Sequence record: PZ049726.1
Reading direction: 5' to 3' (one strand)
Source of the DNA: a phage
DNA: 6,125 nt
Positions 145-6,125 of the stretch are shown here, piece by piece. The position numbers and the translations under genes are program-made. Numbering within the stretch: the first letter of the stretch is position 1; every line of letters begins with the position of its first letter. The notes beneath the pieces were generated by a model, which did no database searches, was not told where the DNA came from, and saw only the letters and a program-made list of their open reading frames with translations.

Positions 145-1095
145 TTATATTTTGTGTTTAAATGCAACTATTCTTATATTCTTATTCTCGTAAACTCTGT
201 TCCAGTTTGCTTGATTTGCTAACTCAGCATTTGAAGGTGATTTTTTAGCAACAGAAGCATCAGTAAACTTAACACCTCTTGGATGTAGTAAGAAGTGTTG
301 TCTGTTTATTAATATATCTTCTCCAGCTAATGAATCTCTGTCTGTTTCAGTTGGTACAGGAGCAGCTCCATTACCTTCACCTATTGCACCTTGTCCGAAT
401 AAGTATGTAGTATATACATCTCCATCTTTAGGACAACCATCATCAACTATAACTTTTCTTCCTAAGTATGAAGGGAAATCAACAACTCCTTGAGAGTTAG
501 GTATATATTGAATTAAGTTTTGTTTCTCTAGTTCTGCAAATACAGTTGAGTGCATAGCAACTGCAGTTAACTTATCAGATGCATCTCCTAGTTTTGTTTT
601 AGCATCTATAAAAGAAGTTCCATTTATTTTAGCTAAGTCCCCTTCAAGAGAAGATATGTCATGTACGTTTCCACTCATTGTACTCGAAGCAAATACACCT
701 TTTAAAACAGCTAATAATGTTTTTTGTCTCTGTCTTGCCCAATATTCAGCCACTAAATCACCTATAGCTTTCATTGGATCATCACCACTTAAAGCCGTTG
801 CTAAGTCATTAACTGACCACGCTTTACCTCTCATTAATAAAGCAGCAACGTCTTGACCTGCAGTTATTTTACCAGGTGTTAATGCTCCATTATCATCTAA
901 AACTTCATCATCACCATTTAAATCTTTCCAGTATGGCATATTTATTAATCTACCACCTGCTAATGCTAAAGAATCTAATTCTTTGTCCTTAACAATTATT
1001 CCACACTTTACCAATGCAGATAATTCAGCTGTCCTTTCTATAACATAAGGGTTAAATACCTCTGGTACTATTACATCAGCTATCTTTGTTGACAT
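145..1095 (-). CDS. phage major capsid protein
   Basis: 316-aa ORF directly downstream of the scaffolding gene, the canonical position of the major capsid gene. Globular, Gly/Ala/Asp-rich composition typical of capsid proteins. AAGGAG sits 9 nt upstream of the ATG. Family assignment is from position and overall resemblance, not a search. Confidence 0.75.
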   Translation of the reverse strand: MSTKIADVIVPEVFNPYVIERTAELSALVKCGIIVKDKELDSLALAGGRLINMPYWKDLNGDDEVLDDNGALTPGKITAGQDVAALLMRGKAWSVNDLATALSGDDPMKAIGDLVAEYWARQRQKTLLAVLKGVFASSTMSGNVHDISSLEGDLAKINGTSFIDAKTKLGDASDKLTAVAMHSTVFAELEKQNLIQYIPNSQGVVDFPSYLGRKVIVDDGCPKDGDVYTTYLFGQGAIGEGNGAAPVPTETDRDSLAGEDILINRQHFLLHPRGVKFTDASVAKKSPSNAELANQANWNRVYENKNIRIVAFKHKI

Positions 1096-1115: not shown

Positions 1116-1730
1116 TTATTTATTATTTTTTAATTGTTCTGCTAGTGTTGGGTTTTCTTTTAAAATCCTTGCTTGCTCTGTAAGATTGAAAGTTTCTTTT
1201 GCCCAAGGATTAGCTACACTTTGTCCTTTTCTTCCGTAATTTCCTACTCCACCAGTATTTTTAGGAGTTAGCTCTTCAAACAAATAACTATCACTTTCTC
1301 TTAAGCCTTTTATTTGACTTTCTAAACCTTCTAACTTTCCATCTTGATATTTTATACTTTCCATATCAAGTAAAGCTTTTATAGCCTTACTATTCTTACA
1401 TTTCGAACTATTCAAGGCATTATCAAGAGCATAATCAAACTCCATAGCTTTTATTTTATTCTCATATTGTTCAGAAGCTTGTTTATTTGTAAGCTGTAAC
1501 TCCTCTATTTGCTTTACTAGAGTTTCATTGTCTTTATTGTTCTTAGATAAATCTTCTAACTGTGTTTTGTAGTCAGTTAATCTATTATCTAACTCTTTTT
1601 TTTGTTCATTCACTTGGTCGAATCTAGCTTTAGGTATAAAGTTTCCATCATCAACCATTATCTTTTTATCACCTAACTTAGATGTCACTTGGTTATAAAG
1701 TTCTTCTCCTAACAATTGTTTTAAATCCAT
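1116..1730 (-). CDS. phage scaffolding protein (GP20-like minor structural protein family)
   Basis: 204-aa ORF. N-terminus MDLKQLLGEELYNQV...KIMVDDGNFIPKARFDQVN and C-terminus NPWAKETFNLTEQARILKENP match my recollection of the GP20 scaffold family. The central region is strongly coiled-coil-like (Lys/Glu/Leu/Gln-rich). It sits immediately upstream of the capsid gene. GGGGGA-type RBS upstream. Confidence 0.75.
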   Translation of the reverse strand: MDLKQLLGEELYNQVTSKLGDKKIMVDDGNFIPKARFDQVNEQKKELDNRLTDYKTQLEDLSKNNKDNETLVKQIEELQLTNKQASEQYENKIKAMEFDYALDNALNSSKCKNSKAIKALLDMESIKYQDGKLEGLESQIKGLRESDSYLFEELTPKNTGGVGNYGRKGQSVANPWAKETFNLTEQARILKENPTLAEQLKNNK

Positions 1731-1743
1731 AATTAAATCCCCC

Positions 1744-2010
1744 TTATTTCAACTTTCCAACTTGATTTTGAAGCATGTATCCTTCTAAATACCACAATCT
1801 ATCTTTAAACCTAGATTTGCATATTTCAGCTCCAAAATCTTCATCGTAGTTAGCTGGATCTACACATGCTGAACTTTCAACTAATGTAAAACCACAAGGT
1901 AATTCCATTACAACAATTGTTATTTTCCCAAACATAGTTGTTACATGAAATTTAGAGTTGTTGTAAATTTCATCTATTTGACTTTGTTTAACTGTTATAT
2001 CAGATTTCAT
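1744..2010 (-). CDS. small phage protein, Gp49 / Sf6 gp66-like (function unknown)
   Basis: 88-aa ORF. The segment LPCGFTLVESSACVDPANYDEDFGAEICKSRFKDRLWYLEGYMLQ fits the pattern I recall for the Phage_gp49_66 family (ACV-P-NFD-EIG ... W-LEGY-L). Start ATG overlaps the upstream stop (TAATG). AGGAGGG RBS lies inside the upstream gene end. Confidence 0.55.
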   Translation of the reverse strand: MKSDITVKQSQIDEIYNNSKFHVTTMFGKITIVVMELPCGFTLVESSACVDPANYDEDFGAEICKSRFKDRLWYLEGYMLQNQVGKLK

Positions 2011-2291
2011 TACTTACACCCTCCTATTTGTATTTTACCTACTTTCACAACAACCTCATTATTTTCATTTAACTCTATTACCGGTTCTTTGTAATGCTCG
2101 AATTCAACTTTAACATTTACAGACTGAATTAACTTTGTTGGTTTGATTTCTTCTGCATCTAACTTTAGAGTTCCAAATTGAGGTATTTTGAAATTTTGAA
2201 TATCTTTAGAAGATATACCTCCATAACCAAAAGATTGCTTGTTCCAATCATCTGTAAGTATTCCTATAACTTGCTTATTAATATTATCCAT
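2010..2291 (-). CDS. hypothetical phage protein (93 aa)
   Basis: ORF with GGAGG 7 nt upstream of the ATG. Its stop overlaps the start of the next gene (TAATG), indicating translational coupling. No recognisable motif. Confidence 0.55.
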   Translation of the reverse strand: MDNINKQVIGILTDDWNKQSFGYGGISSKDIQNFKIPQFGTLKLDAEEIKPTKLIQSVNVKVEFEHYKEPVIELNENNEVVVKVGKIQIGGCK

Positions 2292-2393
2292 AAATCCTCC
2301 ATACGTTTTTTAGTTGTAACGACAACATAGATTAAGCTTAATTTGTTCTTTAACGCCTACAATAGAAGCTAAAAAGGCGCATAAAAAAAGAAC

Positions 2394-2522
2394 TTATAAA
2401 AAGTCCTTACCGTATTCTTTAAACCATTTATCTAGTTTTGCATTACTTTCACCATCTATCCAATTTCTAAGTTCCTCGCCTATTTGGTCGAGTTCTTTTT
2501 CAAGCACTGGTATAGTAGTACA
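2394..2522 (-). pseudogene. relic 3' fragment of a Mu F-like head morphogenesis gene (42 codons plus stop, no start codon)
   Basis: Minus-strand translation CTTIPVLEKELDQIGEELRNWIDGESNAKLDKWFKEYGKDFL* aligns without gaps to the -1-frame tail of the upstream Mu F-like gene (CTTIPVLEKNLDEIGQELKDWVNGKQSPKLDSWFEKYGKYFI*). By hand count that is 26/42 identical residues and about 65% nucleotide identity, with differences concentrated at third codon positions. There is no start codon or RBS of its own. Confidence 0.5.
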
Positions 2523-2532
2523 TATAATAAAA

Positions 2533-2550
2533 GCACCTAATTAAAGGTGC
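2533..2550 (-). terminator. hairpin with downstream U-rich tract, candidate intrinsic terminator of the HNH cassette
   Basis: Perfect inverted repeat GCACCT / AGGTGC (6-bp stem, 6-nt loop). On the minus-strand transcript it is followed by UUUUAUUA. The HNH stop codon (2541-2543) lies in the loop. Confidence 0.35.
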
Positions 2551-3224
2551 ATATCCGATAAATATTTATAAAATTGTTTTCTAGTTGTTTTTTCACCTTT
2601 ATATTTGTTGTGAAATTTATTATGACAACTTACACAAAGAGTTACTCCATTGTCTAAATCTAATCTTAAATCTTTATGAGTATCATAGCTATCCAGATGG
2701 TGTGCCACTAAATTGTATCCATCATCTTTGGTTTTACCACATATCTTGCAAGTATAATCATCTCTTTCTCTAACACTTTTACTCCAAGACTTATATCCAA
2801 ATATTCCACGATTTTCAATTCTATGATTTTCGGATATATTGTTATCATATCTTCCATTGTTTTTACCACTATTAGCTTTAGATATTTTCCTTTTATACTC
2901 TTTCGTCTGCATTACTTTTCTAAGATTATCCCTGCTTTCAGTAGAGTTTAAATAAGTATTGGCTATGTTTTTAGAATTATTTACAAATGCTTCTCTGTCG
3001 GATTTATCTGTATTCTTCCACCAATTATCAAAAGCTTCTTTTCTGCTTCTTGTATTAATTCCTAATTTTCTTAATTGTCTTGATAAATTTCCACTATCAC
3101 AATTAAGTTCTTTAGATATCATAGGTATTGACATTTCTTCATCAATGTAAAGTTTTTTTAATACCTCCGAATATTCCATTCCATATCTTTCTTCAACTTC
3201 GATCATTCTCTTAGATTTTCTCAC
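2541..3224 (-). CDS. HNH family homing endonuclease with N-terminal helix-turn-helix-like region
   Basis: C-terminal HNH motif is directly visible: CKICG ... AHH ... DNG ... CVSCHNKFH (Cys-x2-Cys, His-His, Asn, Cys-x2-Cys-His-x3-His). Preferred start is GTG at 3222-3224, with AGGAGG (3231-3236) 6 nt upstream, giving 227 aa. The ORF-track start at 3263 is also GTG but lies upstream of the predicted -10 box. An in-frame ATG at 3204-3206 is an alternative. Confidence 0.8.
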   Translation of the reverse strand: MRKSKRMIEVEERYGMEYSEVLKKLYIDEEMSIPMISKELNCDSGNLSRQLRKLGINTRSRKEAFDNWWKNTDKSDREAFVNNSKNIANTYLNSTESRDNLRKVMQTKEYKRKISKANSGKNNGRYDNNISENHRIENRGIFGYKSWSKSVRERDDYTCKICGKTKDDGYNLVAHHLDSYDTHKDLRLDLDNGVTLCVSCHNKFHNKYKGEKTTRKQFYKYLSDMHL

Positions 3225-3251
3225 AACAAACCTCCTAATGTTTATACTATA

Positions 3252-3280
3252 ATTATAGTACACAATCCATTAGGATTCAA
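3252..3280 (-). promoter_or_regulatory. sigma-70 / SigA-like promoter for the HNH gene
   Basis: Minus strand reads TTGAAT (3275-3280), a 17-nt spacer, then TATAAT (3252-3257). It starts 3 nt after the -1-frame Mu F stop and lies about 16 nt upstream of the AGGAGG RBS. Confidence 0.45.
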
Positions 3281-3282
3281 GT

Positions 3283-3438
3283 TTAAATAAAGTATTTCCC
3301 ATACTTTTCAAACCAACTATCAAGCTTCGGACTTTGCTTTCCATTAACCCAGTCTTTCAATTCTTGCCCAATTTCATCAAGATTCTTTTCTAGTACGGGT
3401 ATTGTAGTGCAAAGTCCATTCGGGTGTCCAACGGCAAA
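3283..3438 (-). other. C-terminal coding segment of the Mu F-like gene lying in the -1 frame relative to ORF 3390-4220
   Basis: The -1 frame is open for 52 codons (FAVGHPNGLCTTIPVLEKNLDEIGQELKDWVNGKQSPKLDSWFEKYGKYFI*), ending at TAA 3283-3285. It contains an HPN-x-x-C-T motif resembling the HPNCRC-type C-terminus I recall for Mu F / SPP1 gp7 proteins, and its last 42 codons are homologous to the relic at 2394-2522. Confidence 0.55.
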
Positions 3439-4220
3439 TTATTAACTGAATAAACAACTCCATTCCTACTCCTACTCATACACAATTCACAAGTTCTATG
3501 ACTACCTGAAGTAAGCCATTTAATTCCAGCAACAAACGGATTTCTTTGGCAACTTCTCTTCTGTGCTTGTTGAAAAGTATGATTTATTGCAGTACGGGCA
3601 AGTCTTTGAGCGTTATAATCAACTTGGGTAGAAGCTTTACGATATGTAGTCCTCCATTTCAAAGACTTTCTAGCACTAGGATTCAAATACACTTCCAAGT
3701 CCTTAGCAATTTCATACATAGACTTCTTTTCTGCAATTCCTTGAGCTAGAATATAGTCAATATCCTTTTCAAACTTCTTAGTGCATGCCCATATTCTTTT
3801 GCTTAAGCCTAATCTATCTTTGTAAAGCTTCCCAGACATTATTTCATTAACTGCAGCTTGAGGAACTTTAGCAAACATATCTATAAAGGTATCAGCTAAA
3901 TCTAAGCTAAAGGATTTTTTTATATCGAAGAGCATATTTAGTTGAGTTTCGTTGGCTATATTAGCAATCTCTATTAAATCCTTACTTAGTCTCTTATCAA
4001 TAGAATTAGAGAAAGTTGAAATATCTGTTTGTAAGGATTTTAATACACTTCTTACATATCTTTCGGATAAACTATCCTTTGATACTTTTGAAAGCTTCTT
4101 AGATGTATTTAAGTACATTTGCTTATATATATCTTTTATTTCTCTTTGAAGCTTCTTTGTTAGATGTATCTTTTTCTTATTAGCTTCTAGGCATAACTTT
4201 TCGTATTCTGATTTATTCAT
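3390..4220 (-). CDS. phage head morphogenesis protein, Mu F / SPP1 gp7-like (apparently frameshifted near the 3' end)
   Basis: 276-aa ORF immediately downstream of portal. The segment KWLTSGSHRTCELCMSRSRNGVVYSVNNLP fits the W-x-T ... R ... G-x-V pattern of the Mu F family. The expected following motif is found in the -1 frame, so the intact gene probably ran from 4220 to 3283. No strong Shine-Dalgarno; the start follows the upstream stop by 2 nt. Confidence 0.7.
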   Translation of the reverse strand: MNKSEYEKLCLEANKKKIHLTKKLQREIKDIYKQMYLNTSKKLSKVSKDSLSERYVRSVLKSLQTDISTFSNSIDKRLSKDLIEIANIANETQLNMLFDIKKSFSLDLADTFIDMFAKVPQAAVNEIMSGKLYKDRLGLSKRIWACTKKFEKDIDYILAQGIAEKKSMYEIAKDLEVYLNPSARKSLKWRTTYRKASTQVDYNAQRLARTAINHTFQQAQKRSCQRNPFVAGIKWLTSGSHRTCELCMSRSRNGVVYSVNNLPLDTRMDFALQYPY

Positions 4221-4222
4221 AA

Positions 4223-4405
4223 TTATTTTCTGTTTAAATCAACATAAAGAGTTTTCTTTATGTATTTAGCCATCTCTAAATATTGACTTCTTATCTTTTT
4301 ATCTATTCTACTATCTTCTAGCATAGTTACAAAAGCATACATTGATTCTTTGAATTCATCAGTTTGTGTAAGCTTTACTTCTAAATTTATAAAGTTATCT
4401 TCCAT
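4223..4405 (-). CDS. hypothetical small phage protein (60 aa)
   Basis: ORF whose ATG overlaps the portal stop (TAATG) and whose stop lies 2 nt before the Mu F-like start. Packed in the operon; no recognisable motif. Confidence 0.5.
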   Translation of the reverse strand: MEDNFINLEVKLTQTDEFKESMYAFVTMLEDSRIDKKIRSQYLEMAKYIKKTLYVDLNRK

Positions 4406-5811
4406 TACTCAACTACCTCCTCAATCATTCCTATGCTATCTTCTAACATAGTCTTTTCTAATTGTATTTGCTTAAGTTCTTCATCAGCTATTTCATCAGT
4501 AGCATTTACCCACTTCTTAATATAAGTTTTCTTACTCATTGTCTGAGTATTGACTTGTTGCATATCAATAGTTTTTTCAGTATCTTCATCCTCTTGTAAT
4601 GGATATTGATTTTCTACAACTACCTCAAATTCTTCTAAGATAGGTAGCTTAGTTATGTTATAAACCTCTATCATTTCAAGAGTTGCTTTTATCATCCACT
4701 CAAGAGCAGGTCTCCAAGCTTTCATTTTCTCCTCGCACCTAGTAATAAGTTGCCAGTACAAAGCTTTCATAGACTTACCACTTGTCATCATACCTTTTAA
4801 ATCTTGGTTGTTGATTAAAGGTATATTTAAAACCTCATGCATATCAGATTTAATTCTATTAAGTGTGTTTTCCATACGCTCATTATAATTAAAATCAGTT
4901 TCTACAGTTCCTATTTGTGCTTGTTTTCCTTCACTTGCTGTTTGGTCAGTTGCTACATCCCAATATGCTCCTGGTTTTATTTTGAAATGTTTAGATGCAT
5001 CGGGATCTACATCTGTTCCATAGATAATCCTATTCATTCCTTTTCTAAGAGCATCTATATCCTCACTAGATAGTTTATTGTAAGCAACAGCATTGTCGCA
5101 TAGTTCTTCAACATCACTTTCTCCCTTTAAGTCTCCAGAAAGTCCATCATTTAATATTACATATGCTGGTATACCTGTGAGCTTTAAGTCAACATCTTTT
5201 GAAATAATTTCAATAGGAGTTCCATATCCATCGTATATACCTTCATTGAGAATACATTTGTCTTTAACCATTTCGTATTTCTGTTTCCATATCCTCTGTT
5301 CATTCTTAGTTTCTGCTTGGTTAAGTTGATAGAAGAATATAATCTTTCGTAGTTCATCTACTCTATCATCAAAAGGCTCATACACAAACTCTAAGCTAGG
5401 CACAAACATTATTCTTATTGTCTTAGTTATTGTATCTGCATGAAGCTTAATAGCAACTCTTTTACCTATGAAACAATCTCTAGCTGCTTTAATAAGTTTA
5501 TCTTCAAATAAGTTCTTTTTTAGAAGTTTTTTAATGTATTTATTTATTTCTTCTGCTTGATCCTTTAATGTATCATCGTCAACTGCAATTGAGAATGTTG
5601 GAGCTTTACCAAATAGGAATCTAGCTTCTTCTTTAATAAGCTTCTTTATATAGTTGACCTTCTTTTTAGTTGGAACATAATCCTCTTCATCAACTACCCA
5701 ATCTTGACCTGGCCCCTCATAAATATCATAAAGGTTTATAATATCACTATGTTCTTTAATTATCTCACTCCCGTAAAGTCCTTCAAGTTCAGATTTTATT
5801 ATATTTATCAT
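4405..5811 (-). CDS. phage portal protein (SPP1 gp6-like)
   Basis: 468-aa ORF directly downstream of the terminase large subunit C-terminus. Size, position and acidic C-terminal tail are typical of SPP1-type portals. AGGAGGTGA RBS lies 4 nt upstream of the ATG. Confidence 0.75.
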   Translation of the reverse strand: MINIIKSELEGLYGSEIIKEHSDIINLYDIYEGPGQDWVVDEEDYVPTKKKVNYIKKLIKEEARFLFGKAPTFSIAVDDDTLKDQAEEINKYIKKLLKKNLFEDKLIKAARDCFIGKRVAIKLHADTITKTIRIMFVPSLEFVYEPFDDRVDELRKIIFFYQLNQAETKNEQRIWKQKYEMVKDKCILNEGIYDGYGTPIEIISKDVDLKLTGIPAYVILNDGLSGDLKGESDVEELCDNAVAYNKLSSEDIDALRKGMNRIIYGTDVDPDASKHFKIKPGAYWDVATDQTASEGKQAQIGTVETDFNYNERMENTLNRIKSDMHEVLNIPLINNQDLKGMMTSGKSMKALYWQLITRCEEKMKAWRPALEWMIKATLEMIEVYNITKLPILEEFEVVVENQYPLQEDEDTEKTIDMQQVNTQTMSKKTYIKKWVNATDEIADEELKQIQLEKTMLEDSIGMIEEVVE

Positions 5812-5822
5812 AATCTCACCTC

Positions 5823-6125
5823 CTATCTACTGTTAAACTTTCTAACTCTACCATGTGTTTTCATATCCATTTCTAATGCGTACCTGGTTGAATCGACGCT
5901 GTGATTGTCTTTATCTTCCAATTTAGGAATAACATTACCATCTTTATCAGTTTGATAATCTATATTCTCAAATTCCTTAGCTGTATTAGGAGTTCTTTTA
6001 TTATCAATAACAATAGCTTCTAAATCATCAAGCCAGTTTTCGCCAAACTCAATACTTCCTGGACCTTTTTTAGCTTTGAGTGCTTTTATTCCTAATTCTC
6101 TAAGTTCTGCAATACTTCGTGGTTC
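5823..6125 (-). CDS. terminase large subunit, C-terminal part (5' end outside window)
   Basis: The minus-strand frame is open from the window edge to TAG at 5823-5825 and translates ...GENWLDDLEAIVIDNKRTPNTAKEFENIDYQTDKDGNVIPKLEDKDNHSVDSTRYALEMDMKTHGRVRKFNSR*. The D-x-H-x-x-D-x-x-RYAL segment resembles the conserved C-terminal nuclease-domain end of terminase large subunits. The gene sits upstream of portal. Confidence 0.6.
   Translation of the reverse strand, partial: EPRSIAELRELGIKALKAKKGPGSIEFGENWLDDLEAIVIDNKRTPNTAKEFENIDYQTDKDGNVIPKLEDKDNHSVDSTRYALEMDMKTHGRVRKFNSR

Follow-up and report, generated by a model that had tools for sequence, protein, structure and literature searches.

The stretch of phage DNA analysed here, 6,125 nucleotides of sequence record PZ049726.1 (hereafter the window), carries every one of its genes on the minus strand, and among them, at positions 1744-2291, lie the two small open reading frames (ORFs) of 93 and 88 aa that are the subject of this report. 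In the direction of transcription, which we follow throughout in giving gene order, a portal gene, a 60-aa ORF, a MuF/SPP1 gp7-like head-morphogenesis gene and an HNH/NUMOD3 endonuclease gene precede a conserved structured leader, the 93-aa ORF and the 88-aa ORF, and the genes for the head scaffolding protein and the major capsid protein follow (Table 1). A preliminary description of the sequence had reported that the two small ORFs share a TAATG overlap, which our reading confirms: the minus strand runs ...GGAGGGTGTAAG-TAATG-AAATCT, with base 2010 common to the TAA stop and the ATG start. That description had also placed the pair between the HNH and head-morphogenesis genes upstream and the scaffold gene downstream; these flanks are as described, except that the HNH gene is a recent intruder, and in relatives MuF lies directly upstream. 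A GGAGG Shine-Dalgarno sequence precedes the ATG of both ORFs, that of the 88-aa gene sitting within the terminal Gly-Gly codons of the 93-aa ORF, and the junctions of the pair are either stop/start overlaps or a 13-nt spacer. The ratio of nonsynonymous to synonymous substitution rates (dN/dS) of the 88-aa gene against its relatives is 0.07-0.15, indicating strong purifying selection, and for the 93-aa gene the corresponding ratio of proportions of differences (pN/pS), taken over its final 40 codons in comparisons with distant relatives, is 0.39-0.64, synonymous sites being close to saturation; both ORFs are thus real genes and not chance ORFs. A consensus scan of the minus strand from 1744 to 2533, covering sigma-70-type sites only, found no promoter-like or terminator-like site, so the pair is not a classical autonomous moron. 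We also considered whether a programmed frameshift might fuse the small ORF with the scaffold protein and dropped the idea, as a slippery site is absent at the junction. Taken together with the comparisons below, these data lead us to consider it very probable that the 93-aa and 88-aa genes are optional cargo in a late head operon and that the 88-aa protein is a sponge of the Acb4 family.

Pfam profile searches with both proteins returned a significant match for the 88-aa protein in PF13876 (70.5 bits against a cut-off of 27, E 1.8e-19; residues 10-83 aligned to profile positions 4-81 of 82) and no structural family for either, and PF13876 was found in all 22 of 22 homologues of the 88-aa protein. 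This bears out the assignment to Phage_gp49_66 that had been made from two motifs, both of which are present in the protein (SSACVDPANYD and WYLEGY). The accompanying remark that nothing is known of the family's role has been superseded, PF13876 having been, since 2024, the family of the Acb4 sponges directed against the cyclic oligonucleotide-based antiphage signaling system (CBASS), with a crystal structure in PDB entry 9E4W. Its member gp1.3 of phage SPO1, named anti-CBASS 4 (Acb4), has 96 aa, assembles into a tetramer shaped like a pinwheel, with four pockets lying between protomers, binds 3'3'-cGAMP (the 3'3' form of cyclic GMP-AMP) at ~157 nM, also takes 2'3'-cGAMP, 3'2'-cGAMP and cUA, does not take c-di-AMP or c-di-GMP, and alone suffices to defeat CBASS (Chang et al., bioRxiv 10.1101/2024.12.30.630793). 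In the same study, eight of eight diverse Acb4 homologues tested bound 3'3'-cGAMP, 3'3'-cAA was bound only by homologues from phages of Gram-negative hosts, and AlphaFold3 gave confident tetramers for eight of eight homologues examined (bioRxiv 10.1101/2024.12.30.630793). The acb4 gene of phage N4, whose Gp49 gives PF13876 its name, is reported to encode a sponge that triggers the sponge-sensing Panoptes system (2026 preprint).

Structure prediction, proposed earlier, succeeded for one of the two proteins: AlphaFold2 (AF2) modelled the 88-aa protein with confidence (mean predicted local distance difference test score, pLDDT, 90.6) with a core of alpha-beta-beta-beta-alpha topology and a long C-terminal helix, and gave the 93-aa protein no confident fold (pLDDT 53). 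[quoted passage not shown] The 88-aa protein and SPO1 Acb4 thus share a Pfam family and a monomer topology, and both are acidic, similar in size (88 versus 96 aa) and encoded by phage or prophage; for the 88-aa gene, portal, MuF, scaffold and capsid genes lie around it, and the contigs of its relatives also hold terminase and tail genes. They differ in sequence (~15-17% identity) and in setting, the SPO1 gene lying in an early-expressed small-gene cluster and the window gene in a late head operon to which it is translationally coupled.

The nearest database relative is a Romboutsia maritimum prophage protein (A0A371IQW1, P0001; 91% identical), which is already among the 1,331 homologues in Table S3 of Chang et al., as is gp5 of Clostridium phage phiCD146, ~51% identical (bioRxiv 10.1101/2024.12.30.630793). 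Both are stand-alone PF13876 proteins of ~86-88 aa encoded between MuF and scaffold genes, although in the R. maritimum prophage Acb4 comes immediately after the leader, with an unrelated 77-aa gene upstream, and phiCD146 has no 93-aa family member annotated from MuF to scaffold. Six distant homologues (P0015, P0016 and P0018-P0021) carry an N-terminal extension of ~50-75 aa with the motif GY.V.YPDGY.SWSPK..FEK.Y, which Pfam does not recognise (PF13876 alone was called in the two that were scanned, P0015 and P0019); the extension may be another fused sponge-like domain.

The optional nature of the two genes emerges from a comparison that took in 15 related loci (L numbers), which share a layout of a conserved ~95-nt leader, a variable slot and the scaffold start codon, with slot contents that range from nothing to both genes (Table 1). 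In the viral contig L021, the capsid and scaffold proteins are 99.7% and 95.6% identical to those of the window, yet both small genes are missing. Flanking sequence on either side of the slot is 96-98% identical between the window and L008, and the slot contents are unrelated; identity picks up at window position 1744 and stays at 96% across the scaffold and capsid genes. Unrelated small genes also lie between MuF and the scaffold region in TVCOM_ph1 and L013. As a separate observation, the Acb4 gene of L003 has been disrupted, one A having dropped out of an A-run (GGGAAA-TAACA), with the small gene and the scaffold gene intact; this marks either a pseudogene or an error of assembly.

These comparisons bear directly on the head-associated function that the preliminary description had proposed from the placement of the pair, under which one or both small proteins would be minor head, scaffold-accessory or capsid-packaged components, for instance co-assembled with MuF and ejected with the DNA as an instant sponge. 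The position between MuF and scaffold does recur, in the window group, in L013 and L014 (where the scaffold is of a different family) and in the cultured phages phiCD146 and BMBtp3, in both of which the Acb4 start overlaps the MuF stop, and the pair would be co-transcribed with the head genes, having no promoter of its own. However, L021 dispenses with both genes beside nearly identical scaffold and capsid genes, L007-L011 lack Acb4, L013 lacks the 93-aa family, and neither protein co-occurs consistently with cognate scaffold and capsid genes in related phages. Many Acb4 genes, moreover, lie outside structural modules, such as SPO1 gp1.3 in its small-gene cluster and those of the N4-like hotspot. 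No likeness of either protein to a virion or assembly family was found in Pfam, PHROGs or NCBIfam, and fold searches returned Acb4, for the 88-aa protein only. A sponge that works stoichiometrically could soak up little if each virion delivered only a few copies. We therefore regard a head-associated function as highly improbable, and the recurrent placement is better read as a favoured insertion site in a late operon.

Table 1. Positions of features in the window and in related loci (L numbers), with the contents of the cargo slot between leader and scaffold gene.
Locus	Feature	Position	Strand	Remarks
Window	Portal gene	4405-5811	-	PF05133
Window	60-aa ORF	4223-4405	-	without family match; fills the second (portal-MuF) slot
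Window	MuF/SPP1 gp7-like head-morphogenesis gene	3390-4220	-	
Window	HNH/NUMOD3 endonuclease gene	2541-3263	-	
Window	HNH cassette in MuF 3' end	2397-3432	-	
Window	Conserved structured 5' leader	2292-2386	-	GP20-b-like; two hairpins and Shine-Dalgarno
Window	93-aa orphan ORF	2010-2291	-	hypervariable N-terminal half; conserved C-terminal beta-hairpin ending GGCK
Window	TAATG stop/start overlap, 93-aa ORF to acb4	2008-2012	-	direct sequence reading
Window	acb4 homologue, 88 aa	1744-2010	-	PF13876
Window	acb4-scaffold spacer	1716-1743	-	scaffold Shine-Dalgarno (GGGGG) and start codon; downstream edge of cargo slot
Window	Head scaffolding gene, PF06810/GP20 family	1116-1730	-	PF06810 E 6e-43; phrog_194 E 6.4e-50
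Window	Major capsid gene	145-1095	-	
L002	Leader copy	6592-6689		
L012	Leader copy	302-399		
L013	Leader copy	9906-10003		
L020	Leader copy	3850-3947		
L021	Leader copy	1650-1747		
L020, L021	Cargo slot			empty; leader, then scaffold gene directly
L022	Cargo slot	6683-6817	-	44-aa mini-member of the small-gene family; 1281-1415 on reverse complement
L007-L011	Cargo slot			102- or 122-aa family member alone, without Acb4
Window, L002, L004-L006, L012	Cargo slot			family member and Acb4
L003	Cargo slot			family member and frameshifted Acb4
L013	Cargo slot			Acb4 alone, without 93-aa family
L003	Broken Acb4 gene	5740-6019		
L012	Acb4 gene with extra tail	789-1067		
L002	Second slot	5263-5649		
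L005	Second slot	3967-4447		
L008	Second slot	4067-4962		
L009	Second slot	4525-4980		
L010	Second slot	4467-4970		
L010	HNH_3 gene	2298-2933		PF13392
L011	HNH_3 gene	2621-3247		PF13392

The upstream edge of the cargo slot is marked by the leader, which stands upstream of the PF06810 gene in every locus. In the window, it gives a sub-threshold match to the Rfam family GP20-b (RF03003) at 2302-2370, scoring 24.2 bits against a gathering score of 36.2, and the same match occurs in L002, L003, L005 and L009, where scores of 25.9 bits in relatives are likewise below 36.2. Its structure is supported by covariation among 11 sequences, in which 15 pairs are paired at 95.5% and 6 of the 15 have changed on both sides; none of 500 shuffles reaches the observed values and slid controls give 0, with divergent leader sequences being few, so that only about 3 independent lineages contribute. 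Like GP20-b, the leader lies upstream of an operon with a GP20/PF06810 scaffold gene and combines a hairpin with a GGCGUAAAAG loop and a 3' UAAAA-AACGUA box. It differs from that family in its score, in a second covarying hairpin where the Rfam model leaves the region unmodelled, and in having up to two cargo genes between itself and the scaffold gene. In L020 the leader has hardly changed, although the identity of the portal, MuF and scaffold proteins is down to only ~50-56%. Such near-invariance points to a cis element under strong constraint or to a linker for recombination. The leader pattern was also sought in metagenomes, with no match.

A second recurring element lies at the opposite end of the small gene. 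The sequence GG(C/V/A)K-TAATG, which in the window leads into Acb4, joins the small gene directly to the scaffold ATG in L007-L010 and L022, and the Acb4 gene of L012 carries an extra AGGTK-TAATG tail that recreates the junction to the scaffold gene with a Shine-Dalgarno sequence within codons. Because the mini-member of L022 and the Acb4 tail of L012 share this junction, they show the GGxK-TAATG junction to be a reusable translational-coupling module.

The 93-aa protein has no match in sequence searches of Pfam, PHROGs, NCBIfam, PADLOC or the PDB. Clustering at 90% identity leaves its family with 8 clusters in a set of 5.8 billion proteins, and a search of 1.84 billion representatives gave 7 matches, 2 of them spurious short-motif matches; scans of GenBank phages and IMG/VR found no member, Paraclostridium bifermentans, with a prophage that carries the 102-aa gene, is the single named source, and every member so far comes from a Peptostreptococcaceae-type prophage. 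Invariably placed first behind the leader, the family spans 44-130 aa and agrees only over the C-terminal ~25-40 residues, a predicted beta-hairpin with the pattern V.V..E.Y..P..E.NE.NE..VK.GK...GG.K, and in the AF2 model residues about 60-91 alone are moderately confident. The N-terminal half has been replaced, expanded or deleted between otherwise near-identical phages, and in the 93-aa gene it shows a dN/dS near 1, indels and swapped N-termini among close relatives. In L022, the 44-aa minimal member consists of only the C-terminal hairpin and ends in GGAK-TAATG. A BFVD fold search with the 93-aa model, whose pLDDT of 53 is too low for the purpose, gave nothing usable, and an hhalign comparison of the protein with the Acb4 profile gave a probability of 0.1%. 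Three other candidates were rejected: a match to Big_5 Ig-like repeats in P0028 comes down to 27 residues that recur as a motif inside a single protein and was not taken as homology, the ORF is not an exon 2 or a MuF C-terminus since the real MuF C-terminal remnant lies at 2397-2522, and TVCOM_ph1 CDS0004, at the same position, is unrelated to the 93-aa family.

We conclude that the 93-aa protein is the product of a rapidly diversifying orphan accessory gene. As it is dispensable, hypervariable and found in the company described here, our leading guess is a counter-defence or host-interaction factor and not a head-assembly component, a role that we put forward as a tentative possibility; an essential part in assembly is excluded by L020 and L021. 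The main alternative is that the ORF is mostly regulatory, a translated upstream ORF through which leader-controlled translation hands ribosomes on via GGxK-TAATG, its protein having little function. The junction with its embedded Shine-Dalgarno sequence is indeed the most conserved part of the gene, and this alternative would also accommodate the wide range of lengths, the short common C-terminal segment, the relaxed and exchangeable N-terminal half and the missing confident fold. Constraint at the amino-acid level, however, extends over the C-terminal 40 codons, well past the ~15 nt that a Shine-Dalgarno sequence needs, and where the slot is empty (L020 and L021) the leader's own Shine-Dalgarno serves the scaffold gene, so that a coupling ORF is unneeded. 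On balance, we judge a mainly regulatory ORF unlikely and retain the accessory gene as our working interpretation.

Several observations weigh against reading the pair as cargo that includes a functional Acb4 sponge. The sequence link of the 88-aa protein to 9E4W is weak: phmmer against the PDB returned only spurious chymotrypsin matches and the profile comparison reached only E 0.12, so that a fold comparison was needed, and this gave a Foldseek E of 3.5e-3. Three of the ten SPO1 Acb4 ligand contacts are kept (K36->K29, F48->F41 and, as an aromatic at position 62, F62->Y55; alignment A5), and seven are changed (E49->T42, V56->C49, Y57->V50, N63->D56, which is a backbone contact, I66->F59, T70->I63 and K81->Y74), so that SPO1's guanine-reading E49 is a Thr in the 88-aa protein. 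The tetramer and its ligand binding are deduced from homology, and CBASS in the host is presumed. Further, the activity of SPO1 Acb4 comes early in infection (bioRxiv 10.1101/2024.12.30.630793) and the 88-aa gene belongs to a late operon; the MuF gene is frameshifted, so this prophage copy may be decaying; and the place of the 93-aa ORF right after the leader, overlapping the next gene, would fit a regulatory or assembly-related role as well as the counter-defence role at which we guess.

Given the losses among contact residues, including E49->Thr, the ligand of the 88-aa protein could differ from that of SPO1 Acb4, and the protein might be an Acb4-fold sponge for another CBASS di- or trinucleotide, a 2'3'-cAA-type ligand or a Thoeris signal in place of 3'3'-cGAMP. 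The variation of Acb4 specificity with host group points in the same direction. We nevertheless find such a change of ligand quite unlikely, since all of the diverse homologues tested bound 3'3'-cGAMP, and since the SACVDPxNY loop typical of the family is intact in the 88-aa protein and missing from SPO1 Acb4, a divergent outlier, which places the 88-aa protein closer to most of its relatives in the family than SPO1 Acb4, the one that was crystallised. The dsRBD-like fold could also suggest that the 88-aa protein binds phage or host RNA or mimics a translation factor. The same fold neighbourhood has been reported for bona fide Acb4 and was read there as evolutionary origin (bioRxiv 10.1101/2024.12.30.630793), and the sequence family PF13876 has tested sponge members; we accordingly hold RNA binding to be exceedingly improbable and take the 88-aa protein to be a nucleotide sponge.

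If so, the setting would be a Peptostreptococcaceae-type siphophage or prophage and, within it, the late operon of head genes, in which late transcription would run from the structured leader through the 93-aa ORF, acb4, and the scaffold and capsid genes. Ribosomes ending at the TAA of the 93-aa ORF would restart on the overlapping acb4 ATG, guided by the Shine-Dalgarno sequence buried in the last codons of the former. By homology, the 88-aa protein would form a homotetramer with inter-subunit pockets, and such tetramers would build up beside the head proteins and sequester CBASS cyclic dinucleotides, most likely ligands of the 3'3'-cGAMP type; with a Firmicute for a host, the protein is likely to leave c-di-AMP and c-di-GMP unbound. 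The CBASS effector of the presumed host system would then stay inactive and the phage would complete its replication. Late co-expression plausibly fits a stoichiometric sponge that must accumulate in quantity.

Upstream of the pair, the head module has a history of its own. The HNH/NUMOD3 gene belongs to a free-standing cassette of the homing-endonuclease type in the 3' end of MuF, and this cassette has a sequence resembling a promoter (TTGAAT-17-TATAAT, 3280..3252) and a hairpin resembling a terminator (2550..2533); Rfam finds no intron and the anatomy is that of a free-standing cassette, which rules out a group I intron or split gene. The cassette brought along its own divergent version of the MuF C-terminus (3432..3286; identity to relatives 61%) and stranded the original one downstream (2522..2397, 97.6% identical), and relatives free of the cassette have an intact MuF of 310 aa. 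At the cassette junction (~3424-3426, minus strand), just before the HPNG(K/L)C motif, the window has lost one nucleotide, reading GAC-ACCCGAATGGA where relatives read GATCATCCGAATGGA; the resulting frameshift cuts MuF to 276 aa, one added base restores a 312-aa ORF, and the lesion is either a sequencing error or a sign of a decaying prophage. In L010 and L011, HNH_3 genes lie between the terminase large subunit and portal genes, which is a second homing-endonuclease insertion site of the head module.

Cargo is also found elsewhere in the same operon, as the interval between portal and MuF is a second variable slot among the siblings, occupied in the window by the 60-aa ORF alone, which is unrelated to the sibling genes. 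A sibling protein of 128 aa in this slot is Tad1 (E 7.5e-39 to the solved structures 8KBG and 7UAV), a conclusion confirmed against the PDB, as its precomputed PF24729 label was not reproduced in our Pfam scan; other siblings carry Tad2-like proteins (PF11195 E ~1e-22; E 3.5e-15 to 9EIB) or small proteins of 59, 86 and 93 aa without an assigned family. With Tad1, Tad2 and Acb4 present across the siblings, three established families of nucleotide sponges ride in the head module. This arrangement resembles the anti-signalling hotspot of N4-like phages, which holds Tad2, Tad3, Acb4 and Sequestin in a site flanked by the genes for the DNA primase-polymerase and the virion RNA polymerase (2026 preprint), in that small sponge genes and uncharacterised genes occupy variable slots at fixed positions. 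It differs in that the N4-like site neighbours SSB and RecA homologues whereas the slots described here lie within a head-morphogenesis operon, and in that insertion here keeps translational coupling, with no autonomous promoter or terminator found. We hypothesize, tentatively and with doubt prevailing, that the 93-aa family is an unrecognised counter-defence protein and that both slots are late, leader-controlled anti-defence hotspots. Were this true, the slot occupants, namely the 93-aa family, the 60-aa ORF of the window and the 59-, 86- and 93-aa genes of its siblings, would be new immune antagonists.

Our findings resolve to a new Acb4 member of a known family and an orphan neighbour, and nothing in them overturns current understanding; their useful product is a pair of cargo hotspots together with their uncharacterised occupants. 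The annotation of the 88-aa gene, formerly uncharacterised, can now name an anti-CBASS sponge of the Acb4 type, which corrects the idea of a head protein, and the presence of Tad1, Tad2 and Acb4 in two fixed slots of the head operon beside small orphans yields, by guilt by association, a list of candidate immune antagonists. More broadly, these loci suggest that translational coupling can tie anti-defence cargo into late structural operons, and that such cargo need not travel only as self-contained morons.

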